From: a virus
Taxonomy: Duplodnaviria > Caudoviricetes
IMG/VR virus record: IMGVR_UViG_3300044840_000050
Location: 1 to 61,628 of that record
Reading direction: 5' to 3' (one strand)
DNA: 61,628 nucleotides
The position numbers and the translations under genes are program-made. The notes beneath the pieces are model-generated. The model did not search any database, was not told the DNA's origin, and saw nothing but the letters and a program-made list of their open reading frames with translations. Shown here piece by piece: positions 19,440 through 47,832 of the stretch. How positions within the stretch are numbered: the first letter of the stretch is position 1; every line of letters begins with the position of its first letter.

Positions 19440-19457
19440 GTGCGTGTTCTCGTAACA
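19440..19457 (+). pseudogene. orphan 5' end (MRVLVT) of the epimerase gene
   Basis: GTG CGT GTT CTC GTA ACA after GAGGGGAG RBS; matches MRVLVS at 20033. Confidence 0.7.
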
Positions 19458-19571
19458 ACGTCCCCTGACGCGCAAAAAAGCCTTTGTTTACAGGCTAGAA
19501 TGAGCCTTCAAGTGCCCCCGCACCGCGCTAACGGCCGGGGGCGTGCCCACCACCTAGCAAGAGGTGATGAG

Positions 19572-20036
19572 ATGCCGGATCGTACTGTCCTTCTCGTCCG
19601 CTGCCCATGTGGCACCGAGTTCGGGACGACCGAGGCGAGGAAACGGACGGGTCGCGGGCTCTACTGCTCGCGGCGCTGCATGTACGCCTATCGCGTCCGA
19701 CCTACCGGTTTGCATTACGAGATCAAGGTGCGGAACAGAGCGTGGTATACGAGCGATGATCCGCGCCGCCTCCGAGGCGAGGACCACCCGGCATGGAAGG
19801 GTGATGACGTCGGCTACCGCGAATTGCACCGTTGGGTCCGCAACTATCGAGGCGAGCCCGGCCCGTGTGAGTACTGCGGATCAGATGGCTACACGGAGTG
19901 GGCCAACAAGAGCCACAGCTACCTCCGCGATCTCGATGACTGGCTCGCTCTGTGTCGCAAGTGTCATAGCGGGCATGACAGCGGACCCAACCGTGGTATG
20001 GCGGTCGCTCGGTATGGTGCGAAGGGGCTGCGGTGA
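19572..20036 (+). CDS. HNH-type homing endonuclease
   Basis: YCSRRC, HPAWKGDDVGYRELHRWV, CEYCG...EWAN...LCRKCH; TAGAAT -10 at 19496. Confidence 0.8.
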   Translation: MPDRTVLLVRCPCGTEFGTTEARKRTGRGLYCSRRCMYAYRVRPTGLHYEIKVRNRAWYTSDDPRRLRGEDHPAWKGDDVGYRELHRWVRNYRGEPGPCEYCGSDGYTEWANKSHSYLRDLDDWLALCRKCHSGHDSGPNRGMAVARYGAKGLR

Positions 20037-20839
20037 GAGTCCTAGTTTCAGGTGGCGCGGGCTTTATCGGCTCGGCTGTCGTTCTACGTCTGAAAGAGCA
20101 AGGCCACGAGCCCGTCGTGTTCGACCGGTTCCAAGGCCAAGACATCGTCGACAGTGGTGCCGTAGCGGACGCGGTCAAAGGTTGCGACGCGGTCATTCAC
20201 CTTGCAGGGATGTTGGGGACGCACGAACTGTTCGACATCGCTCACATGGCAGTGAACGTCAACATTCACGGCACCCTGAATGTCCTGCAAGCCTGCGACG
20301 CGTTCGAAGCGTCGTATGTCGGGATCACGATGCCCGTCTCCGGGTGGGCGAACGTCTACACCGCGACGAAGCACTGTGCCCAGGATCTCGCCTCTGCATG
20401 GCACCGGCACAAGGGCCTGAAGGTCTCTCATGTGCGCGCGTACAACGCGTACGGGCCGGGCCAGAAATGCGGTCCCGGACACCCGCAGAAGATCGTCCCG
20501 ACCTTTGCGACCGAAGCGTGGGCGGGACGCCCGATCCCGATCTGGGGTGACGGGGAACAGACCGTCGACCTCATCCACGTCGATGACCTCGCCCGCCACC
20601 TCGTCGACGCGCTCGCCTATGAAGACGACCGGATCATCGAAGGTGGGAGCGGCGAACCGTTTACCGTGAACCACATCGCCGCGCTCGTCCAGATCGTCAC
20701 TGGCGGCGCGAGCAACGACGTCGAGCATCTCCCGATGCGGATGGGAGAAGACGCCGGCACGAACATCGTGTCACCGGTCAAGAATGCTCCGTTCGATATG
20801 GCCCGCTTCCGCGAGACCGTCGAGTCATACCGGCCATGA
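20033..20839 (+). CDS. NAD-dependent epimerase/dehydratase (extended SDR)
   Basis: GGAGFIG, VIHLAG, YTATK, NAYGPGQ, DLIHVDD. Confidence 0.93.
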   Translation: MRVLVSGGAGFIGSAVVLRLKEQGHEPVVFDRFQGQDIVDSGAVADAVKGCDAVIHLAGMLGTHELFDIAHMAVNVNIHGTLNVLQACDAFEASYVGITMPVSGWANVYTATKHCAQDLASAWHRHKGLKVSHVRAYNAYGPGQKCGPGHPQKIVPTFATEAWAGRPIPIWGDGEQTVDLIHVDDLARHLVDALAYEDDRIIEGGSGEPFTVNHIAALVQIVTGGASNDVEHLPMRMGEDAGTNIVSPVKNAPFDMARFRETVESYRP

Positions 20840-21240
20840 CCCGGTCAACTTGCACGTTCGATGGGTGCCGCGAGCTGCTGAAGGCTGGCGGATACTGCAA
20901 CAAGCACTACATCAGACTGCGAAAGCATGGTAATCCATCGGTCCGAAAGACTCGGACTGGCGCACCCGTGGGCTTTGGGCCGGGGGGTCTGAACCGCGAC
21001 GGTTACCGACGCTTTTATAGAGATGGCGTCCCCGTCTTCGAGCACCGGATCGTGATGGAGCAGCATCTCGGACGCTCGCTGTTCTCGTTTGAGAACGTGC
21101 ATCACAAGAACGGCGTGCGCCACGACAACCGCATCGAGAATCTCGAGCTCTGGGTCACACATCAGCCCATTGGCCAACGACCTGAGGATCTGATCGCCTG
21201 GGCGCATGAGATCCTCGCTCTCTATGGGAATCCAGAATAA
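20836..21240 (+). CDS. free-standing HNH endonuclease
   Basis: EHRIVMEQHLGR...VHHKNGVRHDNRIENLELW. Confidence 0.92.
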   Translation: MTRSTCTFDGCRELLKAGGYCNKHYIRLRKHGNPSVRKTRTGAPVGFGPGGLNRDGYRRFYRDGVPVFEHRIVMEQHLGRSLFSFENVHHKNGVRHDNRIENLELWVTHQPIGQRPEDLIAWAHEILALYGNPE

Positions 21241-21779
21241 TGAAGCCTCTACCGGAGCTGTATCTAGACGCGTGTCATACGCCTTCCGATATCTTCGAAC
21301 ACCTTCCCGTCTTCGTTGATTTGTGCCGCGAACTCAAGGCCACCAAGGTCATCGAACTCGGAACGCGCGGCGGCGTTTCAACGATCGCGTGGCTCTACGG
21401 CTTGGACCATCAAGGCCACCTGTGGTCTGTCGATATCAATCCAGGACCGCTGTTGGATTACGAGCACTGGACGTTCCTGCGCGGCCACGATCTGGATCCC
21501 GTTGTTCTCGCAGAACTGCCTGAGAAGGTCGACGCCATCTTTATCGATACATCGCACCATTACGAAGACACCCTGCGCGAGCTCGAGACGTACCTTCCGC
21601 GCGTACGAGAAGGTGGCCGGCTCGTCTTGCACGACACCGAGCTTGAGGTCCCCGAAGATTCCCCGGCAGGTGACCCGCCGTACCCGGTGAAGACGGCAGT
21701 GGAGTACTTCTGTGAGCTGCACGACCTCGAATGGTCGAACGTCACTAACTGCTACGGGCTAGCTCAGATCGTCGCGTGA
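21240..21779 (+). CDS. class I SAM-dependent methyltransferase (Methyltransf_24-like)
   Basis: VIELGTRGGVST, IFIDTSHHYE, GGRLVLHDT. Confidence 0.88.
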   Translation: MKPLPELYLDACHTPSDIFEHLPVFVDLCRELKATKVIELGTRGGVSTIAWLYGLDHQGHLWSVDINPGPLLDYEHWTFLRGHDLDPVVLAELPEKVDAIFIDTSHHYEDTLRELETYLPRVREGGRLVLHDTELEVPEDSPAGDPPYPVKTAVEYFCELHDLEWSNVTNCYGLAQIVA

Positions 21780-22441
21780 GACTCGCGCTGCTCACCGCCG
21801 CGTATGACAACTACGACGAGCTGAAGGAGTTACCTCCTCAGGATGTGGCGTACGAGGCGATCTGCGTCACCGACGACCCCAACCTTCACTCCGAATCGTG
21901 GACGGTCGTCTACGACCCTCAACCGGGGGTGCATCCCAACCGGGCGGCGAAGAAACCGAAGTTCTGCCCGTGGAACTACACGGACGCCACGTTTTCGATC
22001 TGGATCGACGCCTCCTTCCGGGTGATGAGCCCCGCATTCATCGGCGACGCTCTCGACATCGTCGGAACGCAGAACGAGAGCCCACTCGCGCAGTTCCCGC
22101 ACAACATGCGCGACTGCCTCTACGACGAAGCCGAAATATCGATCGGGATGGCGAAATACGCCACAGAACCGCTCGCCGAGCAGGTCGCCCGGTACCGCGA
22201 GTGGGGCCACCCGACACATTGGGGTTTGTGGGCCACCGGGATCATGTTCCGATACCACACTCCCGAAGTCGTCGAGCTCGGCGAACGGTGGATGAAAGAA
22301 GTGGCCGACTGGTCCTTTCAGGATCAGGTGTCACAGCCCGCGATGTTGCGTGAGGTCGGCATCCGACCCCTTGCGCTTCCCGGCTTCTACTGGGCGGGTC
22401 AGAACCCGTGGTTCGGTTACGAGGGTTCCTCGAGACATTGA
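21776..22441 (+). CDS. glycosyltransferase (DUF616/TOD1-like)
   Basis: TAAYDNYD, ICVTD, SIWIDAS, HNMRDCLYDEA, QDQVS. Confidence 0.8.
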   Translation: MRLALLTAAYDNYDELKELPPQDVAYEAICVTDDPNLHSESWTVVYDPQPGVHPNRAAKKPKFCPWNYTDATFSIWIDASFRVMSPAFIGDALDIVGTQNESPLAQFPHNMRDCLYDEAEISIGMAKYATEPLAEQVARYREWGHPTHWGLWATGIMFRYHTPEVVELGERWMKEVADWSFQDQVSQPAMLREVGIRPLALPGFYWAGQNPWFGYEGSSRH

Positions 22442-22456
22442 AAGAGGGTGCATCGG

Positions 22457-23089
22457 ATGTCAGCGCCCGCGTACGCGACGACCGCCCAGTTCCGGGACTT
22501 CATCAAAGACACCTCACTCAACGACGCAGTGCCCATCGCGACGATCCTCCTCTCGGCGTCTCGCGACGTGGAGAAAATCTGCGGGCGGGCCTTCTACCAG
22601 CCCGACACGCCGACCGTGCAGTACTTCTCGCCCGCCCGGAACAGCCCGTGGGTTCTCGATCTCGACGACATGGACCTTGCCACCACGGATGGTCTGGTCG
22701 TCGCGGTGCAATGGTCGAACGGCGGCAACTACGCCGAGACATGGTCGCTCGGCACCGACTACATCGCCGAACCGGTGAACCAGTCGGTCAACGGCATCGT
22801 CGGCTGGCCGTACACGTCGTTGCGGTCCCTCGCGAAGATTTGGCCGCCCCGTTACGCCGACTTCTACCGGGACACCGTGAAGGTCACCGCGACGTGGGGT
22901 TGGCCCGCGGTTCCGGATCCGGTCGTGCAAGCCACGTTGATGCGCGCGTTCGAGCTCTACAAGGGTGGCGAGGCACCGTTCGGTGTGGCGGGCCAGGGTG
23001 ACTTCGGGGCGATCCGCGTGCGTGACAACCCGATGGTGTCGTCGCTGCTGCAGCCGTACAAGAAGCAGACGACGCTCCTGATGGCCTGA
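22457..23089 (+). CDS. head-to-tail adaptor
   Basis: YATTAQF...ASRDVEKICGRAF...VTATWGWPAVPDPVVQATL...LLQPY. Confidence 0.85.
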   Translation: MSAPAYATTAQFRDFIKDTSLNDAVPIATILLSASRDVEKICGRAFYQPDTPTVQYFSPARNSPWVLDLDDMDLATTDGLVVAVQWSNGGNYAETWSLGTDYIAEPVNQSVNGIVGWPYTSLRSLAKIWPPRYADFYRDTVKVTATWGWPAVPDPVVQATLMRAFELYKGGEAPFGVAGQGDFGAIRVRDNPMVSSLLQPYKKQTTLLMA

Positions 23090-23490
23090 TGGACATTCAG
23101 GCGGTCAGTACCGCTTTCGCGACCGTGCTCAGCCCGTTGGACGTCCGTGTCTACGACTACGGACCCGATGCCCCGATCTCGCCCGCGGTGTTCATCTACC
23201 CGCTCGACATCGCACAGTATGAGGCGACGTTCGACGGTGCGGTCACCGCGAACTTCGTACTTCGCTTCCTCGTCGCGTCGGGTGCTGCGAAGGGCGGGCA
23301 GGCGCAACTCAACGGTCTGCTCTCCCCGAAGGGCGCGGGCTCCGCTGTCGCACTCATCTTGAAGGACAACACGCTCGGCGGGGTGGTGTCGGGATCGCAT
23401 GTCGCGCAGATGCGGAACTACGGCGTGCTCACGTTTCCGGACACGACCCGCTACTACTCGGCGGAACTGGTGGTTGAGGTGTACGCCTGA
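23089..23490 (+). CDS. tail terminator/completion protein
   Basis: size, position, C-terminal YSAELVVEV. Confidence 0.65.
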   Translation: MDIQAVSTAFATVLSPLDVRVYDYGPDAPISPAVFIYPLDIAQYEATFDGAVTANFVLRFLVASGAAKGGQAQLNGLLSPKGAGSAVALILKDNTLGGVVSGSHVAQMRNYGVLTFPDTTRYYSAELVVEVYA

Positions 23491-23491
23491 A

Positions 23492-24310
23492 ATGCCCGTC
23501 TCCGTCTTCAGTGTCACGGGCACGTTCCACAACGCCGACAACTCACCCGCGTCGGGCACGGTGACGTTCTACGCGAACAACGACTGGGACATCAACACCG
23601 GCGTCATCGGTGACGACTCCCCATCGGTCGTCACCCTAAACGATGCGGGCTCTCTTCCGCACGTCGACCTGTTGTGCAACATCGGCGGCTACCACGTCGT
23701 CACCAAACTCGGACCTCCGGGCAACACCGTCGAGTTCGACCTTCCCTCCCAGACGCCGTTCTCGGTCATCGACCTTTCCACCATTGACCCTGGCACGTCC
23801 ATCTTTCATTCCGAAGATATCGGTGCTGCCGCCGTCCCGCAGGGCGGGACAGCCGGCCAGGTTCTCACGAAACTGTCGAGCGCAAACTACGACGACGGCT
23901 GGATAGATGCCGGCGCGGTCGGCGTATGGCGTGACGGATCGGGTGTCCCGAGCGACAGCCTCGGCGGTGACGGCGACTACTACCTCAACGACACGACCGG
24001 GGACGTTTACCGCCGCGTGACGGGCGCCTATGGGCTCGTCGCGAACATCCTCGGTCCAGCAGGACCCACCGGGCCGACCGGGCCGACCGGCCCCGCAGGG
24101 CCATCGGGCGCGGCCGGATCGTCGTACGTCCACACCCAAAACATCCCGGCGACGGTATGGACCGTCAACCACAACCTCGGACTGTTCCCGAACGTCACGA
24201 CCGTGGATACCGCACTCAACGAGTTCGAGTCGACGATCGTCTACATCGATTCCAACTCCCTCACCGTCACTATCTCAGTTGCGGTAGCCGGGTTCGCATA
24301 CAACAGATAG
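23492..24310 (+). CDS. fibre/adaptor protein with collagen-like segment
   Basis: GTVTF N-terminal domain, GQVLTK, GDYYLN, (GPxGPx)n, C-terminal WTVNHNLG. Confidence 0.75.
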   Translation: MPVSVFSVTGTFHNADNSPASGTVTFYANNDWDINTGVIGDDSPSVVTLNDAGSLPHVDLLCNIGGYHVVTKLGPPGNTVEFDLPSQTPFSVIDLSTIDPGTSIFHSEDIGAAAVPQGGTAGQVLTKLSSANYDDGWIDAGAVGVWRDGSGVPSDSLGGDGDYYLNDTTGDVYRRVTGAYGLVANILGPAGPTGPTGPTGPAGPSGAAGSSYVHTQNIPATVWTVNHNLGLFPNVTTVDTALNEFESTIVYIDSNSLTVTISVAVAGFAYNR

Positions 24311-24325: not shown

Positions 24326-25837
24326 GTGGCGAAGAAGTTCCTCACCCCAATCGACCTCAGCAAACTCGAGCTACAAAACGCTCGTATCCAGCAGCTGTCG
24401 TCGGACCCGAGCAGCCCGGTCGAGGGCGTCATCTATCACAACACGACGAACCACGTGTTCTCGTTCTACAACGGGACGTCGTTCATCTACCTCGGGACAC
24501 TCGACCAGATCACCGCGCCCGCCGCGGATGTGTCGCTCAACAGCCACAAGCTGACGAACGTCACGAACCCGTCCACCGGTACGGACGCCGCGAACCGCCA
24601 GTACGTGCTGGGCTTGACACTGAACGATCTGACCGCCCTCACCGCGGACTACTCGGTCAACAGCCACAAGATCACGTCGCTCGCCACGCCGACAAACCCC
24701 GGCGACGCGGTGACGAAATCCTACGCAGACGGCCTGATCGCCGGCGTCTCATCGTGGAAGACCGCGGTACGAGCAGCGACGACGGCGAACGGCACTCTTG
24801 CGAGCGCGTTCGCGAACGGCTCAGTCATCGACGGCGTGACGCTCGTGACCGGTGACCGGATCCTCCTCAAGAACCAGTCGACCGGCGGGGAGAACGGCAT
24901 CTATGTCGTCGCGGCTTCGGGCGCTCCGAGTCGACCGACTGACGCCGACGCCGGCACGGAACTGACCGGCGCGGCCGTGTGGGTCGACGAGGGCACGACG
25001 AACGCCGATTCCGGCTGGGTTCAGACCGTCGACACGGCCATTACGATCGGGACGACCGCGACGGTATGGGTGCAGTTCTCCGGTCTCGGGCAGATCACGT
25101 CCGGTGCCGGTCTCACAAAGACCGGGAACACGCTCGACGTCGGCGCGGGTACGGGTATCACGGTCGCGGCGGACACGGTCGGTATCGACACGACGGTCAC
25201 GGTCGATAAGACCACGGCGCAGACGTTGACGAACAAAACGTTGACTTCGCCGGCGATCAACACGCCGACGGGGATCGCGAAAGCCGATGTCGGGCTCGGC
25301 AACGTCGATAACACGTCGGATGCGACGAAAAACGCGGCGGCCGTCACCCTGACGAACAAGACGCTCACGACCCCGTTGGGGATCGTCGCGGGCGACATCG
25401 CGTCGGGCACATTCGCCATCGGCCGGATCCCGACCGGCACGACGGGGACTACTGTCCCTCTCGGCGGGGTGATCACCGGGGCAGGCCCGACGGGTGACGC
25501 GTCCCACACCCTCGCGTTGACCTACAACGCGGCCGGGCAGGTCACGGCGGTCACGAACAACGCGATCGCGATCGCCGAATCGCAGGTCACGAACCTCACC
25601 ACCGACCTCGCGGCGAAACCCGGGAAGTTCGCGGTCGACGTCGGTGACGGGTCCTCCACCTCCATTGTCATCACCCACTCTCTCGGCACGAAGGATGTCA
25701 TCGCCGAGGTGTACGACAAGACGACACCGTTCGCGAAGGTCGAGTGCGACGTGCAGCACACGTCGACAACGACATCAACGCTCATCTTCTCGGTAGCACC
25801 AACATCGGCGCAGTACCGCGCGGTTTGTATCGGATGA
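24326..25837 (+). CDS. virion fibre protein
   Basis: KITSLATPT...DAVTKSY repeats, IDGVTL..GDRILLKNQ..ENGIYV, LTNKTL repeats, KADVGLGNVDNTSD. Confidence 0.82.
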   Translation: MAKKFLTPIDLSKLELQNARIQQLSSDPSSPVEGVIYHNTTNHVFSFYNGTSFIYLGTLDQITAPAADVSLNSHKLTNVTNPSTGTDAANRQYVLGLTLNDLTALTADYSVNSHKITSLATPTNPGDAVTKSYADGLIAGVSSWKTAVRAATTANGTLASAFANGSVIDGVTLVTGDRILLKNQSTGGENGIYVVAASGAPSRPTDADAGTELTGAAVWVDEGTTNADSGWVQTVDTAITIGTTATVWVQFSGLGQITSGAGLTKTGNTLDVGAGTGITVAADTVGIDTTVTVDKTTAQTLTNKTLTSPAINTPTGIAKADVGLGNVDNTSDATKNAAAVTLTNKTLTTPLGIVAGDIASGTFAIGRIPTGTTGTTVPLGGVITGAGPTGDASHTLALTYNAAGQVTAVTNNAIAIAESQVTNLTTDLAAKPGKFAVDVGDGSSTSIVITHSLGTKDVIAEVYDKTTPFAKVECDVQHTSTTTSTLIFSVAPTSAQYRAVCIG

Positions 25838-25865
25838 CAATATTGCGCCGTGCTAGGATAAGCGT

Positions 25866-26480
25866 ATGGAGTGCAGTGTTTTTGAGTGCAACCGTACGGC
25901 GAGCCTTCGCGGCTGGTGCAAGATGCACTACACGCGATGGCGACGCACCGGCGATCCCGAAATGGTCAAGCGGCGACTTGTCTGGGGAACGCTCGAGGAG
26001 CGGTTCACGGCTCGAGTCCCCCGAGGCCCCGTTGCCAAATGTTGGGAGTGGCAGGGCGGTCGCAGCCGACAGGGATATGGGCAAATCGCTGTGGATCGCG
26101 GAGGCGAGCGATGGCGATCCGAACCGGCGCATCGTGTTGCATGGGAACTCGCGAACGGTCCGATTGCCGAAGGCATGTGCGTCTGTCATAGGTGCGACAA
26201 CCCGCCCTGCTGCAACCCGGCTCATTTGTTCCTGGGCACGCCCGCGGAGAACAACGCGGACCGGGACGCCAAGGGACGCCATCGGGCGGGGTCCCAGAGG
26301 AACCCTGCTCGAGGCGAGCGAATCGGTAACGCGAAGCTCACCGCCGAGAAGGTACGCGAGATCAGAGTGTTGTACGCAGCTGGTGGCGTCTCTCAAGCGG
26401 CCCTCGGATCTCGCTTTGGCGTCAATCAGAGCAAAATCAGCGATGTGGTCCACAAAAAGACTTGGGCGCACGTCATCTGA
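25866..26480 (+). CDS. free-standing HNH endonuclease with C-terminal HTH
   Basis: CWEWQG, HRVAWE, VCHRCDNPPCCNPAHLFLGT; TAGGAT -10 6 nt before ATG. Confidence 0.93.
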   Translation: MECSVFECNRTASLRGWCKMHYTRWRRTGDPEMVKRRLVWGTLEERFTARVPRGPVAKCWEWQGGRSRQGYGQIAVDRGGERWRSEPAHRVAWELANGPIAEGMCVCHRCDNPPCCNPAHLFLGTPAENNADRDAKGRHRAGSQRNPARGERIGNAKLTAEKVREIRVLYAAGGVSQAALGSRFGVNQSKISDVVHKKTWAHVI

Positions 26481-26483
26481 CTC

Positions 26484-26500
26484 CGGTGTGCCTCGGATGA
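26484..26500 (+). pseudogene. orphan 3' end (VCLG*) of the 24326 fibre gene
   Basis: CG GTG TGC CTC GGA TGA vs GCG GTT TGT ATC GGA TGA at 25820-25837. Confidence 0.6.
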
Positions 26501-26514: not shown

Positions 26515-27897
26515 ATGGCCCTCAAGTTCCTCACCGGGCTCGATATCCCGACGACGGGTCTCACCCTCGCTGGAGTGACGTCCGCCGCGCTCGGGGAAGC
26601 GAACCTCGGACTCGCGACGCTCACGAACCACGGGGTACTCCTCGCCGCCGGCGCGGGCGCGTTCACCGCACTTGCGCTCGACGCGTCGACAACGAAATAT
26701 CTGAAGTCGGGTGGGTCGTCGGCTGGTCCGACGTGGGCGACGATTCCGGTCGCGGATGTGACCGGTGCCGCACCACTCGCGAGCCCGACCTTCACGGGCA
26801 CTGTGACGATTCCGGGTGGGGCGTCGATCAGCGGGTTCGCGACCCTCGCCTCACCGACGTTCACGGGTACGGCGACGATGCCGCTCGTCAGGTTCACGGG
26901 CGGCGCGTACACGGCGTCCTTCACCGACATTTCCACCCAGGTCAACAACACGTTCGCTACTACGGCGAGCATGTCGCACACCGGTCTTGTGATCGCTCCG
27001 GGGGATACGTGGAGTGTTGCTCCCGGTGTCGCGTCGATGTTCCTGGGCGCCAACGTCGCGGGCGTATTCGCGAATGACCCGGCCGCTGCGATCGACCTCG
27101 GACCGGTCGTCGCGTTCTCAGCGTCCTACATCAAGAAGATTGATACGCAGACCGGCCGGTCGATGGGCCTGTTCGACACCGACTTCAACTCGGCGCCGTC
27201 GTATCTGGTGGCGAACTCCGGGACATTCACTGCCGCGACGCACACGTCGTTCGCAGCTGCCGTGATTCTGAACGCTGCATCGTCGACGATGACGTCACAC
27301 AAGGGGTTCACTTCCGGTGCGACGCTCACGAACGGAACGCTCACGACCCTGACGCACATCAGCCTCGTGGACCCTACCGGTGGCGGGACCCTGACGACCC
27401 AGATTGGGATTGACATCGCCGCGTTCGCGAAGGGCGGAACGAATATCGGTATCCGCAACAAGGCGAACACGCAGCTCGGTTCGTCCGCACAGTTGACGGT
27501 CGACACGTCCGGGAACCTCGCAACGTCCGGTTCGGCGCTCTCGTCGGGCACGGGCGGTATCGGGTATGCCTCTGGTGCGGGAGGCACCGTCTCCCAGGCG
27601 ACCGGCCGCACCACGGGCGTGACGCTCAATAAGACGGTCGGGACAATCACCCTGTTCTCCACCACGCTTGCCGCGGACACCGATCAGACGTTCACGTTCA
27701 CGAACTCAACGATCGCCGCCGGCGACGTTCTCGTCTTCAACATCATCAGCGGTGCAGCGGTCAAGGGCGGCTACTCCGTCAACGCCATCGCCGCCGCCGG
27801 TTCGGCGACGGTCACGGTCCATAACCACACGCCGACCATCACCGCGACAGAAGCGCCCGTCATGGCCTTCGCGGTCATCAAGGGTGTCACTGCGTGA
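26515..27897 (+). CDS. virion fibre protein
   Basis: T/G/A-rich, LASPTFTGT x2; C-terminal domain shared with the 36105 fibre. Confidence 0.78.
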   Translation: MALKFLTGLDIPTTGLTLAGVTSAALGEANLGLATLTNHGVLLAAGAGAFTALALDASTTKYLKSGGSSAGPTWATIPVADVTGAAPLASPTFTGTVTIPGGASISGFATLASPTFTGTATMPLVRFTGGAYTASFTDISTQVNNTFATTASMSHTGLVIAPGDTWSVAPGVASMFLGANVAGVFANDPAAAIDLGPVVAFSASYIKKIDTQTGRSMGLFDTDFNSAPSYLVANSGTFTAATHTSFAAAVILNAASSTMTSHKGFTSGATLTNGTLTTLTHISLVDPTGGGTLTTQIGIDIAAFAKGGTNIGIRNKANTQLGSSAQLTVDTSGNLATSGSALSSGTGGIGYASGAGGTVSQATGRTTGVTLNKTVGTITLFSTTLAADTDQTFTFTNSTIAAGDVLVFNIISGAAVKGGYSVNAIAAAGSATVTVHNHTPTITATEAPVMAFAVIKGVTA

Positions 27898-28916
27898 GAG
27901 TTCTGGTCGTCGCTCCCGGTGCTGACTTCTCCGTTGCTGACGTACACCGTGGCTACGTCAAGGGACTCAAAGCCCAAGGTCTGCAGGTCGCTGAATACAA
28001 CATGGCGGACCGCCTCGTCTTCTTCGCCAACTGTCTCATCGGCGGCAAGAAGATCGAAGGTCAACAGATCGTCGAACACGCAGCGCGCGGCATCCACGAG
28101 AAGATGTGGGAATGGTGGCCTGACCTCGTCGTCGTGATCTCCGGCTTCTACGTGATGCCGATCACCTGGGAGATCCTCCGCTCCCGCCCCCACAAGACTG
28201 CGGTCGTCTTCACCGAGTCACCGTACGAAGACGACCGCCAGCTCGCCTTGGTCGAAGCGGCCGAACCTGACGTCGTGATCCTCAACGACCCGATCAACAT
28301 CGACCGGTACAAGAAGATCCACAACAACGTCGAGTACCTCCCGCACTGCTTCGACCCGGACATCCACTACCCGTCGAAGCGGCCACCGGTCCATGACTTC
28401 TCGTTCGTCGGCACGGGCTACCCATCGCGTATCCGACTGTTCGAGAAGGTCGACTGGGACGGTATCGACGCGAAGTTCGCGGGGCATTGGACGGGCCTCG
28501 AGCCCGATAGCCCGCTGACTCCGTTCTTGTTGCAGTCGCCGGACGATTGTTACCCGAACGACGAAGCGGCGGACCTGTACCGGGCGTCGCGCATGTCGGC
28601 GAACCTCTACCGCGGCAAAGACGCGGTAGAGGCGAACGCCGCCGACCTGCAAGAGGGTTGGGCGGTCGGCCCCCGCGAGATCGAGCTCGCCGCGTGCCAG
28701 GTTCCCTTCCTTAGGGAGTCCAGGGGCGAGGGCGACGCGCTCTTCCCGGTCCTTCCGACGTTCTCGGAAGCGGGCGAAATGTCGGAACTCCTTCACTGGT
28801 GGCTCGCTCGGCCAGAGAAGAGGGCCGAGGCAGGCGTTGCCATAGCGGCAGCGGTCGAAGACAGAAAGTTCGAGAGAAACGCACGGCGGCTGCTCCAGCT
28901 TGTCGGCAACACATAG
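27894..28916 (+). CDS. glycosyltransferase (CgeB/Glyco_trans_1_2-like)
   Basis: TESPYED, YLPHCFDP, FSFVGTGYPSR, GPREIELAAC. Confidence 0.82.
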   Translation: MRVLVVAPGADFSVADVHRGYVKGLKAQGLQVAEYNMADRLVFFANCLIGGKKIEGQQIVEHAARGIHEKMWEWWPDLVVVISGFYVMPITWEILRSRPHKTAVVFTESPYEDDRQLALVEAAEPDVVILNDPINIDRYKKIHNNVEYLPHCFDPDIHYPSKRPPVHDFSFVGTGYPSRIRLFEKVDWDGIDAKFAGHWTGLEPDSPLTPFLLQSPDDCYPNDEAADLYRASRMSANLYRGKDAVEANAADLQEGWAVGPREIELAACQVPFLRESRGEGDALFPVLPTFSEAGEMSELLHWWLARPEKRAEAGVAIAAAVEDRKFERNARRLLQLVGNT

Positions 28917-41760: not shown

Positions 41761-42437
41761 TGGCCGTCAACATCGTGAAGATTCACCACGAGGGGGGTGG
41801 CAACCCTCACGACGACCCCGGCCATTCGGGGACGATGGGCTACTCCATCTGGATCGGCCCGTCGCGGTACACGTTGCTCCGCCCACCGTGGCAGGACTTC
41901 GCGACACTCAACCTCAACCATGTCGTCATGTCGTGCTGCTTCAGCGGCCAACGCCACGCCGGCATCTCGGGCGACCCGGCGCATCCGATCACCGACACCG
42001 AGATCGGTCTCCTGCGCGCGGCGGTCGAAGACGCACGCCGAAAAGGTTGGGTGACGAACACCCCCGCCGTGTCGCCCCACGACAACCTCTTCGGTTCCGC
42101 TACGGCATGTCCCGGTTCCGAGGCGTACGCCCGCTGGGTCGACATCGTGAACGCCTGTTACGTGAACACAATCCCGCCCCCCGCACCAGAGGATGACGAC
42201 ATGGAAAGTTACCGATACCCGCACCCCGCGGACCCGAACAAGTTCTCCGGCGCGGTCATTGACCGGGCGAACAAGCGGGTGCAGCTGTACGGCAACGCGA
42301 AGATCAACCAGCCGACCGTGGCAGGCGTGTTCTGGGGTACCCCGAACCCGAACGGCATCCTCACGTCGTATGCCGAACCGAACGGGTTCTGTGTCGTCAC
42401 GACCGATTCGGACGAGTATCACCTTTCCTGGGTGTGA
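41760..42437 (+). CDS. endolysin, Amidase_2-like N-acetylmuramoyl-L-alanine amidase
   Basis: IHHEGG, YSIWIG, PH...ATACPG zinc-amidase pattern; start of lysis region. Confidence 0.75.
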   Translation: MAVNIVKIHHEGGGNPHDDPGHSGTMGYSIWIGPSRYTLLRPPWQDFATLNLNHVVMSCCFSGQRHAGISGDPAHPITDTEIGLLRAAVEDARRKGWVTNTPAVSPHDNLFGSATACPGSEAYARWVDIVNACYVNTIPPPAPEDDDMESYRYPHPADPNKFSGAVIDRANKRVQLYGNAKINQPTVAGVFWGTPNPNGILTSYAEPNGFCVVTTDSDEYHLSWV

Positions 42438-42486
42438 GATGAGTCTCGTTCATGGACGAGCGCCGAGCTAGAAGAGGACCGGACAG

Positions 42487-42558
42487 ATGACAGAACCTAG
42501 GGATCAGCCGGGAGTTGACGCTCAGGGCTTCTCGGTACGCGACCCCACCGAAAACTAA
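42487..42558 (+). pseudogene. orphan 5' end of the 43159 gene
   Basis: MTEPRDQPGVDAQGFSVRDPTEN* matches GVDAQGQPVIDPTKN (11/15 aa). Confidence 0.8.
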
Positions 42559-43115
42559 ATGTGTTTCCACTTCTTGCGCTTCACGATGAGATTTACCTGA
42601 CCCGCAGTGACGCCGTACTCTCGGCCGAGCGATGCCATCGTTATGTCGCCCACAGCGTGTCGGCGACGAATCTCAAGCACCTCGGGAGCGGTCAGACGGG
42701 CCTGCGCATTGCGTTCCCCCATCGCCGCTCGCTCGGGATGAATACGCAGTCCGTTTCGATCACCGAGCGCCCGACTCTCTGGCCGTGTGTAGACGCCAGC
42801 CTTTTCACCGCTGGCCGTTCGGCCTTTCTCTACGCAGTCTCGCCTATTGTCGAGTTGAGTCCCAGCAAAGAGATGCTCGGGGCGAACGCAGAGCCCATTG
42901 TCGCAGCGGTGACAGACGAGCAACCCGTCGGGGATTGGTCCGATGAACTGTTCGTAGGCGAACCTATGTGCGCTCACGCATCGGCTTCCGACACTAAATA
43001 CGCCGTACCGACCAGCGCCCCCCGTCCATATCCAGCACGGCCCAAGTTCGGGCTGATGCTGGGGGATTGGCCCGAGCTTGTTGACTTTTGCCCAGAACCG
43101 TTCAATCGGCGTCAT
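42555..43115 (-). CDS. free-standing HNH endonuclease (paralog of 25866)
   Basis: CWIWTG, HRFAYE, VCHRCDNGLCVRPEHLFAGT; TAAACT -10 6 nt before ATG. Confidence 0.93.
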   Translation of the reverse strand: MTPIERFWAKVNKLGPIPQHQPELGPCWIWTGGAGRYGVFSVGSRCVSAHRFAYEQFIGPIPDGLLVCHRCDNGLCVRPEHLFAGTQLDNRRDCVEKGRTASGEKAGVYTRPESRALGDRNGLRIHPERAAMGERNAQARLTAPEVLEIRRRHAVGDITMASLGREYGVTAGQVNLIVKRKKWKHI

Positions 43116-43158
43116 CTCAACAGTTTATTGCACAGGTCGTCGGGTCGAAGGATGAGAC

Positions 43159-43695
43159 ATGGCTAAGGAAGGAGTCCCCGGTCTGGGGGTAGATGCACAG
43201 GGCCAACCGGTCATAGATCCCACTAAAAACGTCTCAGACACTGTCGAAGCGGCCGTCAAGCGGCTCGATGATATCGCCTTGCTTAGGGCTTATTACATCG
43301 AGCGGGAGATGGAACTCCGGGCCGACTTCCAACATCAGCTCGACGCGAAGGAAGCGGCCCGTCTTGATGCCAACCGTTCGCAGGACCAGGACAACGCCCG
43401 ACGCCAGGCAGAGACGGCGCTCGCGGCCGTGCAAGCTCTCGCGACGCAGGTCCCGATCACGGCGGACGCCGTGCGTAGCGCGTCGGCGGCATCGCTGAAC
43501 CCGATCCAAGAGCGGCTGACGCAGATCGAGCGGATTCAGTATGAGCAGGCCGGGCAGAAGGCGGGCGTGGTTGAGACGAAAACGGACCGGGGCGCGAACT
43601 CGGCGCTCGTGTTCGGTGCCATCGGGGCACTGGTCGGCGTGTTCGGATTCCTGCTCGGCGCGGGCAGTCTCATCTTCGTCGTCGTTCACGGCTAG
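43159..43695 (+). CDS. membrane protein, coiled coil plus C-terminal TM (lysis region)
   Basis: LVFGAIGALVGVFGFLLGAGSLIFVVV. Confidence 0.75.
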   Translation: MAKEGVPGLGVDAQGQPVIDPTKNVSDTVEAAVKRLDDIALLRAYYIEREMELRADFQHQLDAKEAARLDANRSQDQDNARRQAETALAAVQALATQVPITADAVRSASAASLNPIQERLTQIERIQYEQAGQKAGVVETKTDRGANSALVFGAIGALVGVFGFLLGAGSLIFVVVHG

Positions 43696-43704: not shown

Positions 43705-43773
43705 GTGGGTGGTTTGATCGGTCTGCTCGTTGTCATCGTCCTAATCGTCATCGTCGTCAGGATTCTGTTGTGA
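43705..43773 (+). CDS. 22-aa single-TM peptide
   Basis: AGGAG RBS; MGGLIGLLVVIVLIVIVVRILL. Confidence 0.6.
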   Translation: MGGLIGLLVVIVLIVIVVRILL

Positions 43774-43961
43774 TGCTTGCCGTACACACCATGTCCGCCG
43801 GGACCGAAGCGGTCCTCTACTTCATCGCGCTAGTGGCGTTCGTCGTCGCTGCGATCTTCGCGTTCGTGACTGCACCCCGTGCGATCTGGGCGATCCTCGT
43901 CGCTTCCGGTCTCGCGCTATTCGCGCTAGTGCTCTTCTGGAATAGCGCGGCGCTGGCCTAA
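43773..43961 (+). CDS. two-TM membrane protein
   Basis: two hydrophobic helices. Confidence 0.7.
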   Translation: MLAVHTMSAGTEAVLYFIALVAFVVAAIFAFVTAPRAIWAILVASGLALFALVLFWNSAALA

Positions 43962-43990
43962 CCGACGACACCGTTCACTAGGAGACATGG

Positions 43991-44467
43991 ATGTTCGCGT
44001 CGGGCGGAATGAGCGAAGTGGGCTGGGCGGTCGTATCAGCCCTCGCGGTCATGGCGTCGGTCGGGTTCGTGATCTGGATGCGGAAGGCCGCGAAGAAAGC
44101 GTTCATGGCCTGGTTCTCCATCGCGATCGACACGCATGTCGAACCGAAGTTTGAGGGGTTGAAACAGCAGGCCCTCGATTCCGCAGCCGCAGTGAAAGAA
44201 GAGCTGCGGATACATACTGCTGAGGAAGGTGCGGTCGTTCGGCTGGTGGTCCAAGAAGAAGTCGCTCCTCTGCGGGCGATACTTGATAGCCGCAACGAGA
44301 TGTTCGACCACCTAGAGGGTTCTCTTACGGCGACGCAGGACAAGTTGTCGGAGCACATGGCTCACGACGACGCCGTGATGGAACGAGTCGGTGCCGATCT
44401 GCGCGCCGGTCAGGCTGCGTTGCTGCGGACCATCACCCGTAACCAGGACCGCGATATCGACAAGTAA
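43991..44467 (+). CDS. membrane protein (N-terminal TM, coiled coil)
   Basis: AGGAG RBS; WAVVSALAVMASVGFVIW. Confidence 0.7.
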   Translation: MFASGGMSEVGWAVVSALAVMASVGFVIWMRKAAKKAFMAWFSIAIDTHVEPKFEGLKQQALDSAAAVKEELRIHTAEEGAVVRLVVQEEVAPLRAILDSRNEMFDHLEGSLTATQDKLSEHMAHDDAVMERVGADLRAGQAALLRTITRNQDRDIDK

Positions 44468-44527
44468 CCGCGCGTCCGGGCGACGCGTGCAAAGCAGAGA
44501 AAACACCCTCCACCAAAGGGAGTGATC

Positions 44528-45457
44528 ATGCGCGCACGTTTCCTCGCGACATTTGTCGCGCTCGCAACCATCTTCGGCCTCGCCGGCCCAGCCCCCGAAG
44601 CGGGCGCTATCACCGGCCATCCGACACCAACCAACGTCGGAGTCCAAGGGAGCACGACCGCCTATACGGGGCCGTACACGATCACCTCCTGCGGGACGGT
44701 CATCGACCACAAAAGCATCGTGAACCACGACCTGATGATCCGGGCCGGGAACGGGCACGACGACGAAGCGCATCCGTGCGTGACGATCACGAACTCGATC
44801 ATCTACGGCGGCATCATCGACGACGGATACACCGGCCAGGGTTACGGGCCACTGTTGATGAACGACTCGACCGTCATCAACCTCACGACCCGCGACGTCG
44901 CATGCGTCAGTGACACCCGGCTCTACATGCACCGTGACTACGTGTCGGGCTGCCGGTCCGGAGTGCAGACCGACGGGTACACGTCGCTGACCGATAACTA
45001 CCTGCTCGCGGATCGCGAGTCCGGCAGCGCGCACATGGACGGGTTCATCACGAACGGCATGTACGGCACCCCACTCATGCTGCAGAACAACACGTTCGAG
45101 TGCAACGCAACGCTCGGTGACCCGGTCCCGAACGGTGCGGGCTGCGCGGCCGACGCCGCGATCTACCCGGACTTCAGTGCCGAGTCAGGCGTGAACGTCT
45201 GGGGGAACCTGTTCAAAGCCTCGCAGGGCGGCATGTACTACTGCTTCCACTCGCCGTACGAGGCGGGGAAACCGACGTACGGGACCGCGGGCCGGAACAA
45301 CATCATCGTCGGGAACGACTTCGAGTCCGGCAGCTCAGGGAAGTGTGGCAACTCGAACGCCGTGTACGACTGGAACAACGTCGCCGGCTTGTGGTGCAAC
45401 AACACGTTCACCGCTACTGGTGCGGACGTGCATCCGTCGACGCCGGACAACTGCTGA
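44528..45457 (+). CDS. secreted beta-helix (pectin-lyase-like) protein
   Basis: signal peptide MRARFLATFVALATIFGLA...AGA; N/G/D/C-rich repeats, HMDGF. Confidence 0.7.
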   Translation: MRARFLATFVALATIFGLAGPAPEAGAITGHPTPTNVGVQGSTTAYTGPYTITSCGTVIDHKSIVNHDLMIRAGNGHDDEAHPCVTITNSIIYGGIIDDGYTGQGYGPLLMNDSTVINLTTRDVACVSDTRLYMHRDYVSGCRSGVQTDGYTSLTDNYLLADRESGSAHMDGFITNGMYGTPLMLQNNTFECNATLGDPVPNGAGCAADAAIYPDFSAESGVNVWGNLFKASQGGMYYCFHSPYEAGKPTYGTAGRNNIIVGNDFESGSSGKCGNSNAVYDWNNVAGLWCNNTFTATGADVHPSTPDNC

Positions 45458-47316
45458 TGCGGCGCCTCATCGCAACCATCTTAGGTGCGGCACTCGTCGC
45501 AGCCGGGCTCGCCGCGTGCGACACGACGACACCGCCTGTTTCGCAGACGTTGCCGATTCGGGCCGCGTTCTACTACCCGACCTTTCCTGAGTGGTGGAAC
45601 CAGCAAGGCTTCAACCCGTTCACGAACTACACCCCGACGCGCGGCTACTACGACACGAACAACGTCGTCGCAGCGCACGTGCAGGACATGCTCTACGCAG
45701 GACTCACAGCGGGCATCGCGAGCTGGTGGGGGCAGGGCACGAAGTCCGACGGCCGGATGCCGAACCTCCTCGCCGCGACGTCGGGCACGAAGTTCCAGTG
45801 GGCTCCGTACTACGAACCCGAAGGCGTCGGCGACCCGACCCCCGCGGTCATCAAGTCGGACCTCGACTACCTCGCATCGAAGTACACGTCAAACCCAGGG
45901 TTCCTTCACGTCAACGGCAAGCCCGTCATCTTCGCGTTCGCGCAAGGGTCGGACGGCTGTTCGATGGTCGACCGGTGGAAGAACGCCGACCCGAACCACG
46001 CGTTCTACGTCGACCTGAAGGTCTTCCCGGGCTACAAGTCGTGCGCGAACCAGCCTGACAGTTGGCACCAGTACGGGCCGTCGTCACCGACCGATTCGCA
46101 GGCCGGTTACAGCTACAGCGTGAGCCCGGGATTCTGGAAGAAGGGCGAAGCGACTCCGCGTCTCGCTCGAGACCCAGCGCGCTTCGCTGCGAACGTCGCG
46201 AGCATGGTCGCGTCGAAAGCACCGTGGCAGCTGACCACAACTTTCAACGAGTGGGGCGAGGGCTCCGCTATCGAGTCCGCGACGCAATGGTCATCGCCGT
46301 CCGGACGCGGCAAGTACCTCGACATCTTGCACAACCAACTCGTCGGCTCAACGACGACAACAACGGGGGGAACGTCATCGACAACGAGTTCGTCCCCGAC
46401 GACATCCCCTACGACTACAACGACTTCCTCGTCCTCTACGAGCACGACCACGTCGTCCTCTACCTCGACGACGGTTACGTCCCCTACTTCTACGAGCACA
46501 ACTACGACGACCGTTCCCACTTCATCCTCGCCGTGCGGAAATCCGGGGACACCGAAACTCCACCAAAAAGTGGTGGTCTTCAGTTTCGAGAACCGGACGT
46601 GGTCAGGGGTTGGCGGAACGCAATTCCAAAGCATCCCGTACTTCAACGGGTTGGCGAAACAGTGTTCGACCTTCTCCAACGACACCGAACCTGATACCAG
46701 CCAGAACAGCGCAACCCAGTACGTCGGCCAGTGGCAGGGTTCGACGGCGAACACGGTCCGCAACGACTGCAACCCGGGCCCGTCGTGTCAATCAACTGCG
46801 GACAACATCGCTCGGCAGATACGCAACGGCGGCGGGACGGCACGTTCCTACGTGGAGGGCGCGACCTCGGCGTGTAGCGCTTCGGGGAACGCGGCGAAAC
46901 ACATCCCCGCCCTCTACTTCTTCGGCGGGACGGACCATTCGTTCTGCAATCAAGAGGTGCTGCCGTACAGCCAGTTCAACCCGAACCTCCTCGCGGACTT
47001 CAGCTTCATCACTCCGACCCTATGCGACGATGGGCACGACTGTCCTAACAGCACTGTTTCGGCGTGGGCGAGTACCAATGTGCAGCGCGTAATTGATTCT
47101 GCGGCATACAAAGCGGGAGATGTAACTATTCAAATTTGGTATGATGAGGACGCGCCTATCCCCAATATGTTCATTGGGTTGCACGCTATTGCTGGGGTGA
47201 AATCGACCCCCATCGATTATGGGTCAACCCTCCGGCTTTGGGAGGATCTTGTGGGGCTTCCGCATATCGCACACGCTGTTACAGCAACCGATATCCGACC
47301 GCTAGCCCGTATCTGA
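45457..47316 (+). CDS. lipoprotein: GH99-like glycoside hydrolase + S/T linker + phosphoesterase domain
   Basis: lipobox GLAAC; AFYYP, SWWG, YYE, FNEWGEG; FSFENR...KHIP...FITPTLCDDGHD. Confidence 0.78.
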   Translation: MRRLIATILGAALVAAGLAACDTTTPPVSQTLPIRAAFYYPTFPEWWNQQGFNPFTNYTPTRGYYDTNNVVAAHVQDMLYAGLTAGIASWWGQGTKSDGRMPNLLAATSGTKFQWAPYYEPEGVGDPTPAVIKSDLDYLASKYTSNPGFLHVNGKPVIFAFAQGSDGCSMVDRWKNADPNHAFYVDLKVFPGYKSCANQPDSWHQYGPSSPTDSQAGYSYSVSPGFWKKGEATPRLARDPARFAANVASMVASKAPWQLTTTFNEWGEGSAIESATQWSSPSGRGKYLDILHNQLVGSTTTTTGGTSSTTSSSPTTSPTTTTTSSSSTSTTTSSSTSTTVTSPTSTSTTTTTVPTSSSPCGNPGTPKLHQKVVVFSFENRTWSGVGGTQFQSIPYFNGLAKQCSTFSNDTEPDTSQNSATQYVGQWQGSTANTVRNDCNPGPSCQSTADNIARQIRNGGGTARSYVEGATSACSASGNAAKHIPALYFFGGTDHSFCNQEVLPYSQFNPNLLADFSFITPTLCDDGHDCPNSTVSAWASTNVQRVIDSAAYKAGDVTIQIWYDEDAPIPNMFIGLHAIAGVKSTPIDYGSTLRLWEDLVGLPHIAHAVTATDIRPLARI

Positions 47317-47832
47317 ATGAGGACGTGTCAATCGCCACCCTGCACCGAATCGCTAGAGGGGCGACCTCCAAGGTTTCTGTATTGCTCACCTCGGTGCAGG
47401 AGTCGAGAAGCGAATCGCAACTACCGGAAACAGAGTCCCGACAAGGCCGCAGCAAACACTCGCCGCTATCGGGCGGCGCATGGTGACGCGAGGCGCGAAT
47501 ACAACAATCGGTGGCGCGCGGAGAACCCCGAAATGTGGAGGGCGCTAACTCTCAAACACACTCGCCTGATTCGTGCTCGCCGTGCGGGCGTGAAGATCTA
47601 CGAGATATCGGATCGGGACTTGGAGCGATTGATGAACCGCCAAGGTGGTCGCTGCGCCTATTGCCACACGGTCCCGACTGAATGGCAACTTGACCACATC
47701 ATCCCGCTTATTCGTGGTGGGCAAGATGCGATCGGCAATCTCGCCTGGTCCTGCGCGTACTGCAACCGGAGCAAACGTCGGAGCACCGTGACTGAGTGGT
47801 ATCTACGGCTGCGCCGAAAGCTGGCTGCGTGA
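47317..47832 (+). CDS. free-standing HNH endonuclease
   Basis: CAYC...LDHIIPLIRGG...NLAWSCAYCNRSK. Confidence 0.92.
   Translation: MRTCQSPPCTESLEGRPPRFLYCSPRCRSREANRNYRKQSPDKAAANTRRYRAAHGDARREYNNRWRAENPEMWRALTLKHTRLIRARRAGVKIYEISDRDLERLMNRQGGRCAYCHTVPTEWQLDHIIPLIRGGQDAIGNLAWSCAYCNRSKRRSTVTEWYLRLRRKLAA

Follow-up and report, generated by a model that had tools for sequence, protein, structure and literature searches.

Gene content of the contig and its HNH genes

The window analyzed here is the whole of the viral record IMGVR_UViG_3300044840_000050 from IMG/VR, a contig of 61,628 bases (linear class, approximately 66% complete and approximately 63% GC), and our subject is three HNH endonuclease genes in it, each of which lies between an intact gene and a short duplicate of one end of that same gene. 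The genes concerned encode an NAD-dependent epimerase, a fibre-like structural protein and a small membrane protein. Searches of a cultured-phage collection with megablast and tblastn returned no near relative and no match at the DNA level, and the HK97-type capsid protein is at best approximately 34-35% identical to capsids of Mycobacterium and Gordonia phages; for these two reasons we class the contig as an uncultured actinophage-like siphovirus. The stretch from 10 to 48 kb includes genes for the large terminase and the capsid, a glycosylation module, fibre-like genes and two long structural open reading frames (ORFs) of 1,364 and 1,910 amino acids. No tRNA genes were found in the window, and a search of it against Rfam gave no match at threshold to any family, those of introns among them. 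The closest relative that we found is contig G001 (locus L086), whose epimerase is 75% identical at the amino acid level.

Genome-wide profile searches identified twelve HNH ORFs in the window. Seven match PF01844 (8785-9081, 9113-9868, 9964-10251, 16561-17379, 19569-20036, 47317-47832 and 60733-61323) and five match PF13392, the HNH_3 family (20836-21240, 25866-26480, 42555-43115, 54299-54844 and 58523-58981); all are on the plus strand except 42555-43115 and 58523-58981. Eleven of the twelve pass the curated Pfam cut-offs for HNH or HNH_3. The initial annotation of this sequence had listed the same number of HNH ORFs and four paralogous pairs (8785/9964, 9158/16573, 20836/58523 and 25866/42555), and all of these were recovered at 30-48% identity: 38/79 residues for 8785/9964, 78/260 for 9113/16561, 44/114 for 20836/58523 and 73/189 for 25866/42555. 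Relatives of the last pair also carry a C-terminal helix-turn-helix. The GC content at third codon positions (GC3) is 0.64-0.74 in eleven of the HNH ORFs and 0.80 in the one at 9964, compared to mostly 0.77-0.88 in the surrounding host genes.

The host genes in the window are uninterrupted ORFs with their own starts and stops and no in-frame insertion. The HNH genes are thus free-standing, outside any intron or intein, and their host genes, each provided with a start or stop of its own, need no splicing. Their presence is sporadic, as G001 has no HNH gene at the places corresponding to 16561, 19569 and 20836.

Duplicated gene ends across three HNH genes

It had been proposed from the sequence that diverged duplicates of a gene end face each other across HNH cassettes at three places, 19440/20033, 25820/26484 and 42487/43159, and that these involve 5' and 3' ends and both orientations. 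All three duplications are present, and the evidence for them is a shared 12-mer in the first, a 14/18 nucleotide (nt) match in the second and a profile match with E=2.5e-6 in the third. Two of them concern 5' ends and one a 3' end, and the HNH gene at 42555-43115 is on the minus strand. In each case a short, apparently native terminus lies across the HNH gene from an intact gene that carries a diverged copy with A/T-ending codons. The layout is therefore gene body, donor-type terminus, HNH gene and native remnant, with its mirror image at 5' ends, and the host gene is intact without an intron or intein.

The longest remnant precedes the membrane-protein gene. This remnant (42487-42558, plus strand) consists of a start codon, 22 further codons and a stop, reads MTEPRDQPGVDAQGFSVRDPTEN, and follows a gene that we take to encode a lysin from sequence motifs and from its position; Pfam and PHROGs returned no match for this putative lysin gene. 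The stop of the remnant ORF overlaps the stop of an HNH_3 gene of 186 amino acids (42555-43115, minus strand; PF13392, E=6.3e-13), which is oriented opposite to the host gene. Beyond it lies the small membrane-protein gene itself (43159-43695, plus strand), a possible member of the lysis cassette, with its replacement 5' terminus. The functional copy at 43159 reads MAKEGVPGLGVDAQGQPVIDPTKN, and the gene there begins with MAKEGVPGLGVDAQGQPVIDPTKNVSD. The two copies are identical at 11/15 amino acids and 30/45 nt. Homologues of this protein from five viral and eleven metagenome loci all start with the same motif. We built a hidden Markov model (HMM) from the N-termini of these 16 homologues, leaving the window out, and used it to search all 1,768 peptides of a six-frame translation of the window. 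Here the functional start ranked first (E=2.9e-17) and the remnant second (E=2.5e-6), followed by a third peptide at E=0.048. Over the duplicated 15 codons GC3 is 0.47 in the functional copy vs 0.67 in the remnant; it is 0.52 over the first 25 codons of the functional gene, and the shift to A/T at third positions reaches approximately position 43305, in line with a tract of low GC3 at 42766-43305. At five viral loci (L001-L005) the homologue directly follows its upstream gene and there is no HNH gene between them. In the viral and the metagenome collections alike, the best relative of this gene had 44% amino acid identity.

The second remnant lies in front of the epimerase gene. It (19424-19457, plus strand) comprises a sequence resembling a ribosome-binding site (GAGGGGA), a GTG start and five codons (V RVLVT), which read GTG CGT GTT CTC GTA ACA from position 19440, 84 nt past the stop of the glycosyltransferase gene, and it is cut off by the cassette. 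The cassette (19458-20036, plus strand) contains a 111-nt leader and an HNH-like ORF with its ATG at 19572 and its stop at 20036, and the 3' end of this ORF overlaps the new ribosome-binding site and GTG start of the epimerase gene (20033-20839, plus strand). The functional start reads GTG AGA GTC CTA GTT TCA from 20033 and is identical to the remnant at 12/18 nt; the first six codons differ by four synonymous changes and one residue change (T to S). The GC3 of the first 25 epimerase codons is 0.52. Taken alone, the 12/18 likeness of the two copies is not significant, and N-termini of Rossmann-type proteins such as RVLVTG are common.

What distinguishes the two epimerase starts is their relation to G001. 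The epimerase at L086 begins with ATG AGG GTT CTC GTA ACA GGG and has no HNH gene at that place; in G001 the place of the cassette is taken by an unrelated gene of 84 amino acids. The remnant shares with the L086 start the 12-mer GTTCTCGTAACA, which is present at a single place in the window, the remnant, and did not turn up in any of 100 shuffles. By an eye count over codons 3-6, the remnant matches L086 at 12/12 nt and the functional copy at 8/12. From this match and the uniqueness of the 12-mer in the window we take the remnant to be the native copy: judged against the relative, it is the remnant and not the working copy that carries the lineage's own synonymous choices.

The third duplication affects a 3' end. 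A fibre or decoration-like structural gene (24326-25837, plus strand) ends in YRAVCIG before its stop, and its last 27 codons or so (25756-25837) are shifted to A/T at third positions, with a GC3 of 0.60 over the last 25 codons vs 0.86 for the whole gene. It is followed by an HNH_3 gene of 204 amino acids (25866-26480, plus strand; PF13392, E=9e-15), and two bases past the stop of that gene lies the sequence CCG GTG TGC CTC GGA TGA (26483-26500, plus strand), encoding PVCLG and a stop, which we interpret as the native remnant. It matches the end of the fibre-like gene, GCG GTT TGT ATC GGA TGA (25820-25837), at 14/18 nt. As an empirical test, the last 18 nt of an upstream gene were compared with the 65 nt after the next gene at all loci fetched for the survey described below. 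The value of 14/18 exceeds all 1,299 control tests, among which the maximum of 13 was reached in 5. Of 20 C-terminal homologue matches that extend to the terminus, 18 finish with VxxG and a stop, mostly as YRVV[VI][IV]G. Both copies in the window have Cys at the third-last position, a residue found there in none of the family C-termini listed.

The next-best match next to an HNH gene in the same comparison was at L128:2540-2995, where 13/18 of the last 18 nt of the upstream gene were matched within 65 nt after the HNH gene. It could represent a further short remnant. In the three window cassettes, scans for promoters and terminators showed nothing notable.

Composition of the tracts adjoining HNH genes

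A frame-free GC3 scan showed that in the structural region all long tracts of low GC3 sit at HNH genes and extend into their neighbours (16276-17235, 19366-20070, 20776-21465, 25756-25920, 42361-43305 and 47011-47955). Gene termini of 25 codons have a mean GC3 of 0.64 beside HNH genes (n=10) vs 0.78 elsewhere (n=42; Mann-Whitney p=0.00095). The shift is also polar: the termini joined to the gene bodies of the epimerase, fibre-like and membrane-protein genes are low (0.52, 0.60 and 0.52), while genes on the remnant side are normal, with 0.84 at 26515 and 0.76 at 42437.

The A/T-shifted tracts that had been pointed out at 16331, 21240 and 47041 proved to be real in the GC3 scan and, for the first of them, in a codon alignment with G001. 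This first one is in the major capsid gene (15077-16537, plus strand; Pfam Phage_capsid), at whose 3' end the tract 16276-16537 (plus strand) abuts the HNH gene 16561-17379. Here the protein is conserved relative to G001 and the window's codons are A/T-ending from approximately 16328, so that over 16292-16426 GC3 is 0.57-0.67 in the window vs 0.90-0.97 in G001. The second covers the 5' end of the methyltransferase gene (21240-21465, plus strand; GC3 0.60), and the third the 3' end of gene 45457-47316 (47011-47316, plus strand; GC3 0.48 over the last 25 codons), which abuts the HNH gene 47317-47832.

In the capsid gene, and in the epimerase gene at either end, nucleotide identity to G001 drops within approximately 250 nt of HNH genes, and in these two genes the window's GC3 falls over the same distance. 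In the epimerase gene identity is 0.66-0.71 in the first 250 nt or so, compared to 0.78-0.86 in the middle of the gene. These tracts of low GC3 and lower identity abutting HNH genes are about 80-300 nt long. The simplest reading is that a diverged donor with lower GC3 would have supplied each HNH gene along with the DNA next to it, in other words that the tracts would be co-conversion tracts rather than purposeful recoding.

Recurrence in other viral contigs

We surveyed 80 viral loci with relatives of the HNH genes at 25866 and 42555 and 80 with relatives of those at 20836 and 58523, among 282 loci fetched in all. Every gene of 70-360 amino acids was treated as a cassette, and the terminus of its neighbour was searched for on the opposite flank. 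HNH ORFs were forced into the gene list, since their low GC3 made the gene caller miss most of them. The earliest versions of this test were swamped by tandem paralogues and low-complexity matches; a paralogue filter and then an ungapped score with identity and entropy filters were chosen after that earlier output had been seen. With ungapped filtered scores of at least 50, a duplicated terminus was found in 4/237 tests around HNH genes vs 1/2,230 control tests (p=3.9e-4, with a post hoc filter), and in 3/220 vs 1/2,150 when the window was left out (p=0.003). With anchored scores of at least 40 after the paralogue filter the counts were 3/142 vs 1/1,739 (p=0.0016), or 2/126 vs 1/1,659 without the window (p=0.014). 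The excess of duplicated termini over non-HNH genes, which had been suggested as a check on the pattern, is modest at 4/237 vs 1/2,230, and it was weaker in several versions of the test.

Four further viral contigs (L131, L159, L120 and L240) show the same architecture around an HNH_3 gene, and these matches are convincing on inspection. In L131, approximately 31-50 C-terminal amino acids are duplicated after the HNH gene, with a GC3 of 0.77 in the gene-linked copy vs 0.90 in the other. In L159 and L240 the HNH ORF continues in frame into the displaced native C-terminus and uses its stop; in L159, 11/14 codons for the same residue differ between the copies, and GC3 is 0.53 in the gene-linked copy vs 0.87. 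In L120, MALTARQQRFVDECL upstream of the HNH gene corresponds to VSLTTKQTRFVEEYL at the N-terminus of a small terminase subunit, a family assignment confirmed by Pfam. These cases also have a bearing on annotation: a short "orphan" ORF, or an odd C-terminal tail on an HNH protein like those of L159 and L240, can be the displaced end of a gene.

A proposed route of insertion

We consider it fairly probable that free-standing HNH homing-endonuclease genes entered the terminal codons of their host genes at the three sites by one-sided homologous repair combined with an illegitimate join. A nuclease encoded beside a homologous gene in a diverged, lower-GC3 donor phage would make a break in the recipient gene at a distance of 5 to 23 codons from its terminus. 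From this break, the end that belongs to the gene body would invade the donor homologue and copy the donor terminus together with the HNH gene. On the far side the donor would offer no usable homology, and because of this the copied strand would be joined illegitimately to the recipient's remaining broken end, as a result of which the recipient's own terminus would survive as a stump. The host gene remains complete, as the terminus that was displaced is present beside the HNH gene in a diverged version. The carrier would be immune to its own nuclease, given that the insertion splits the native target and that the linked copy has many synonymous differences. The composite could then spread by ordinary two-sided homing, as homology exists on both sides, in the gene body on one and in the remnant with its downstream DNA on the other. 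Cleavage, immunity and the order of the repair steps are what we infer from this layout.

The initial annotation had gone further and held that such cassettes reach new coding sites, without intron or intein, by bringing a cleavage-resistant copy of the piece that they displace. The anatomy agrees with this: there is a free-standing HNH gene, a diverged copy linked to the gene body and a native piece beyond. The copy may be brought as an adaptation, or it could equally well be a by-product of one-sided repair of a double-strand break.

How free-standing endonucleases first reach new sites, and how they can sit in essential genes without splicing, is a long-standing gap. The remnants described here are natural footprints, from which the insertion point can be read with a precision of a few codons. 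Since that point is marked, and is probably at or near the cleavage site, the target sites are predictable and can be tested. If the pattern is general, it would connect the mosaicism seen within phage structural and lysis genes with homing endonucleases.

Only tentatively would we extend this route to a widespread class of "terminus-swapping" phage HNH genes, which we regard as doubtful. Such genes, approximately 4 in 100 of the sampled HNH_3-type genes going by the footprint, would colonise coding sequence by means of a synonymously recoded, cleavage-immune 5' or 3' end of an essential gene, and in later homing the displaced end would act as their distal homology arm. If this is true, there would be a third way of entering genes, next to introns and inteins, and one that directly generates intragenic mosaic joints at the ends of capsid, fibre, terminase and lysis genes.

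Several observations weigh against insertion by one-sided repair as outlined above. Nine of the twelve HNH genes in the window have no remnant, and the ORF at 19569 is the one that falls under its cut-off, with 12.9 bits to PF01844, although it matches phrog_8446, "HNH endonuclease", at E=1.5e-5. The duplications at the epimerase and fibre-like genes span only 5-6 codons each. Their anchored protein scores, 18 and 21, are near the 95th-99th percentile of controls, and flank-versus-flank Smith-Waterman alignments of DNA and six-frame translations did not rise above shuffles or pseudo-cassettes; the null is dominated by off-frame low-complexity translations of GC-rich DNA. Composition polarity is not universal, as the two epimerase copies share an equally low GC3 (0.33) and both copies in L120 have 0.50. 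For the fibre-like and membrane-protein genes no close relative was found, and for this reason the native status of their remnants is read from composition.

The survey adds to these points. The enrichment depends on few matches and on a filter picked after earlier output, and the controls are mostly old core genes, so that recency of insertion is confounded with HNH status. With gapped scores the counts were 4/237 vs 7/2,230 at 50 or more (p=0.016), and at 45 or more p was 0.136. Before the paralogue filter the anchored score was not significant above 20, and with controls from the same loci only, leaving the window out, it gave 2/126 vs 0/382 (p=0.06).

The modest size of this enrichment and its confounding with recency would also be expected if generic illegitimate recombination, of the kind behind phage mosaicism, had inserted modules and left partial duplications, the HNH genes being passengers common among recent acquisitions and no nuclease break being involved. 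The sole strong match around a gene other than an HNH gene fits such an explanation, as the control at L070 12701-13678 is an fn3 gene without a recognizable nuclease, lying between paralogous small genes. So does the order of the methyltransferase gene and gene 21776-22441 beside the HNH gene at 20836, which differs from that in four relatives; other rearrangements therefore occur at this locus. Generic recombination does not, however, account for the HNH gene lying exactly between the copies in all three window cases and all four outside it, for the low-GC3 flanks being tied to HNH genes across the structural region, or for the 4/237 HNH tests vs 1/2,230 control tests at a score of 50 with the entropy and identity filter. 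We consider it unlikely as the explanation for the three sites.

The L070 locus (12406-13940, on a contig of 37% GC) can be described on its own terms: a gene of 325 amino acids with an fn3 domain is situated between two copies of a small Cys-rich gene that are identical at 24/35 positions in the stretch compared.

A further explanation is that only the duplication at the membrane-protein gene is real, and that the 5-6 codon matches at the other two genes are chance likenesses of sequence around a ribosome-binding site and start or next to a stop. The flank-versus-flank DNA alignments, which are not above shuffles, and the anchored scores of 18 and 21, which fall inside the control tail, would both be compatible with this. 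Chance is, however, hard to reconcile with an exact 12-mer that the epimerase remnant shares with the start of the L086 orthologue, unique in the window and absent from all 100 shuffles, or with a 14/18 nt match above all 1,299 controls. Moreover, both repeats are exactly at the predicted place and the gene-linked side is low in GC3. We therefore think that chance is very unlikely to explain them.

Direct repeats flanking an insert could in principle be target-site duplications of a transposase-like element, or the HNH genes could reside in self-splicing introns or inteins, but nucleotide identity between the copies is only 57-78%, they are 18 to more than 90 nt long and, in contrast to fresh target-site duplications, they differ mostly at synonymous sites, and the host genes have their own start or stop, one HNH gene is on the opposite strand and Rfam returned no family at threshold; given the diverged copies and the lack of an RNA family we rejected these readings as having almost no probability.

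Other HNH genes and neighbouring observations

Three HNH genes stand in tandem upstream of the large terminase gene (10444-11838), at 8785-9081, 9113-9868 and 9964-10251, all on the plus strand. The outer two are paralogous (38/79) and flank the middle one, and GC3 is 0.67, 0.64 and 0.80 in order. This trio may be a whole-gene version of the arrangement of foreign copy, nuclease and native copy. The gene at 9964-10251, with its host-like GC3 and its position beside the terminase gene, may be a resident HNH gene of the packaging type.

The PF01844 gene at 16561-17379 (plus strand) directly follows the capsid gene. A scan of viral contigs by alignment with this gene and the one at 9113 found no relatives. 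At L088:2087-2902, a 43%-identical homologue of 16561-17379 is likewise found directly after a capsid gene, and the two capsids are only approximately 52% identical. Going by these two loci, the 3' end of the capsid gene looks like a recurrent site of HNH insertion.

The glycosylation module (17620-22441), between the capsid and tail genes, includes genes for a GT2 glycosyltransferase, the NAD-dependent epimerase, a methyltransferase and a TOD1-like transferase. It is syntenic in several relatives, and three HNH genes are found in or beside it. Gene 27894-28916, which is kept alongside the glycosylation genes in four relatives, was counted as a member of the module. The HNH_3 gene at 20836-21240 (plus strand) is located between the epimerase and methyltransferase genes, and no remnant was seen near it. 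The order in the window is epimerase, HNH, methyltransferase and gene 21776-22441, compared to epimerase, gene 21776-22441 and methyltransferase in L086, L087, L089 and L094. The methyltransferase gene may have moved together with this HNH gene.

In G001 the orthologue of the TOD1-like gene 21776-22441 (L086:6792-8306) encodes 504 amino acids, compared to 221 in the window. The difference corresponds to an in-frame insert of approximately 283 amino acids, which starts with Cys (CAPGDQMVW...), ends in ...DDQILFN and is followed by Cys; these boundaries resemble those of an intein. Pfam identified no domain in the insert.

No remnants were found beside the HNH genes at 16561, 47317 and 54299. 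After the PF01844 gene at 47317-47832 (plus strand), the next gene has a predicted N-terminus VVSTAAPKAGCVTDEL (47796-47850) that weakly resembles VIDSAAYKAGDVTIQI inside the upstream gene (approximately 47100-47150), at 8/16 positions. This resemblance may be chance. The PF13392 gene at 54299-54844 (plus strand; 54368-54844 with a later start) encodes an HNH_3 protein with an AP2 DNA-binding domain at its C-terminus, an architecture that PMC10448857 reports for a family of homing endonucleases from phages and protists. The remaining two are the HNH_3 gene at 58523-58981 (minus strand), a paralogue of 20836-21240, and the PF01844 gene at 60733-61323 (plus strand).

Comparison with known systems

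Whether such a pattern had been described before was left unanswered when it was first noticed in this sequence. The same architecture is in fact established in fungal mitochondria (PMC3630166). The mORFs reported there combine an endonuclease ORF with a foreign terminus and a kept native terminus, in Allomyces atp6 and in Glomus atp6, atp9, cox2 and nad3; the Glomus elements are from Beaudet et al. 2013 and that of Allomyces macrogynus atp6 is from Paquin et al. 1994, as cited in the same source. In both settings an endonuclease ORF sits in the terminal part of a gene, with a foreign terminus in frame and the native terminus beyond it, here in three cases in the window and four outside it. 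For Allomyces atp6 the native copy was argued from its closeness to a sister taxon (PMC3630166), an argument which here applies to the epimerase remnant only. L159 and L240, where the HNH gene reads into the remnant, can also be set beside the fungal elements. Unlike the mORFs, which are described as LAGLIDADG or GIY-YIG elements of an organelle, the phage elements are HNH or HNH_3 genes in a double-stranded DNA phage genome. They also replace 5' ends, as two of the three cases in the window do, and such an end comes with a ribosome-binding site and a start of its own; their nuclease gene may be in either orientation, and their remnants are as short as 5 codons.

Among phages, the nearest parallel in genomic setting is the "intronless homing" of T4 (SegF, SegG and MobE; PMC2988022), in which a nuclease gene is located between or beside conserved genes and is present or absent among relatives. 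As with the T4 free-standing endonucleases, flanking DNA in the window may have been co-converted, and immunity of the carrier would follow from differences near the cleavage site. The account in PMC2988022, in the parts available to us, describes the T4 elements as intergenic and does not mention a retained duplicate gene end, whereas the insertions in the window are inside coding sequence. The same review summarizes experiments on the T4 td intron (Parker, Belisle and Belfort 1999) in which homology to one exon sufficed for homing; microhomology served for the other junction, and this was put forward as a way of reaching ectopic sites. The window cases would likewise have had homology on one side only. 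Unlike the engineered td system, they are natural elements without an intron, and they are functional since the copied tract held the gene end.

Free-standing HNH insertions around lysin A in Cluster J mycobacteriophages (Pope et al. 2013, PMC3706429) resemble those in the window as actinophage HNH genes placed beside lysis genes. At Omega gene 51 the insertion was imprecise, with a loss of 35 bp and a new 3' end of lysin A, and Pope et al. invoke error-prone repair or a donor from a different genomic context and a role in mosaicism. The window differs in keeping native remnants; in the accessible text of PMC3706429 we saw the 35-bp loss and neither a retained remnant with a foreign replacement terminus nor a 5'-end case. 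A full-text search of the phage literature (Barth et al., a Skunavirus HNH survey, the T4 review, SegB and Cluster J), which covered the parts of these sources open to it and did not reach subscription journals and supplements, returned no retained native end with a foreign replacement end around an HNH gene. The terminus-swap layout is thus known from fungal mitochondria and apparently not yet described in phages.

The phage elements work like terminus-carrying mORFs and are not members of that set, because they have HNH or HNH_3 nucleases, are found in a phage genome and affect 5' ends in two of three cases. What appears to be new here are the HNH enzymes, the phage genome, the replacement of 5' as well as 3' ends and the occurrence of the nuclease gene in either orientation. 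If the pattern is general, a mechanism documented until now in fungal mitochondria would extend to phages, to HNH enzymes and to the 5' ends of genes.

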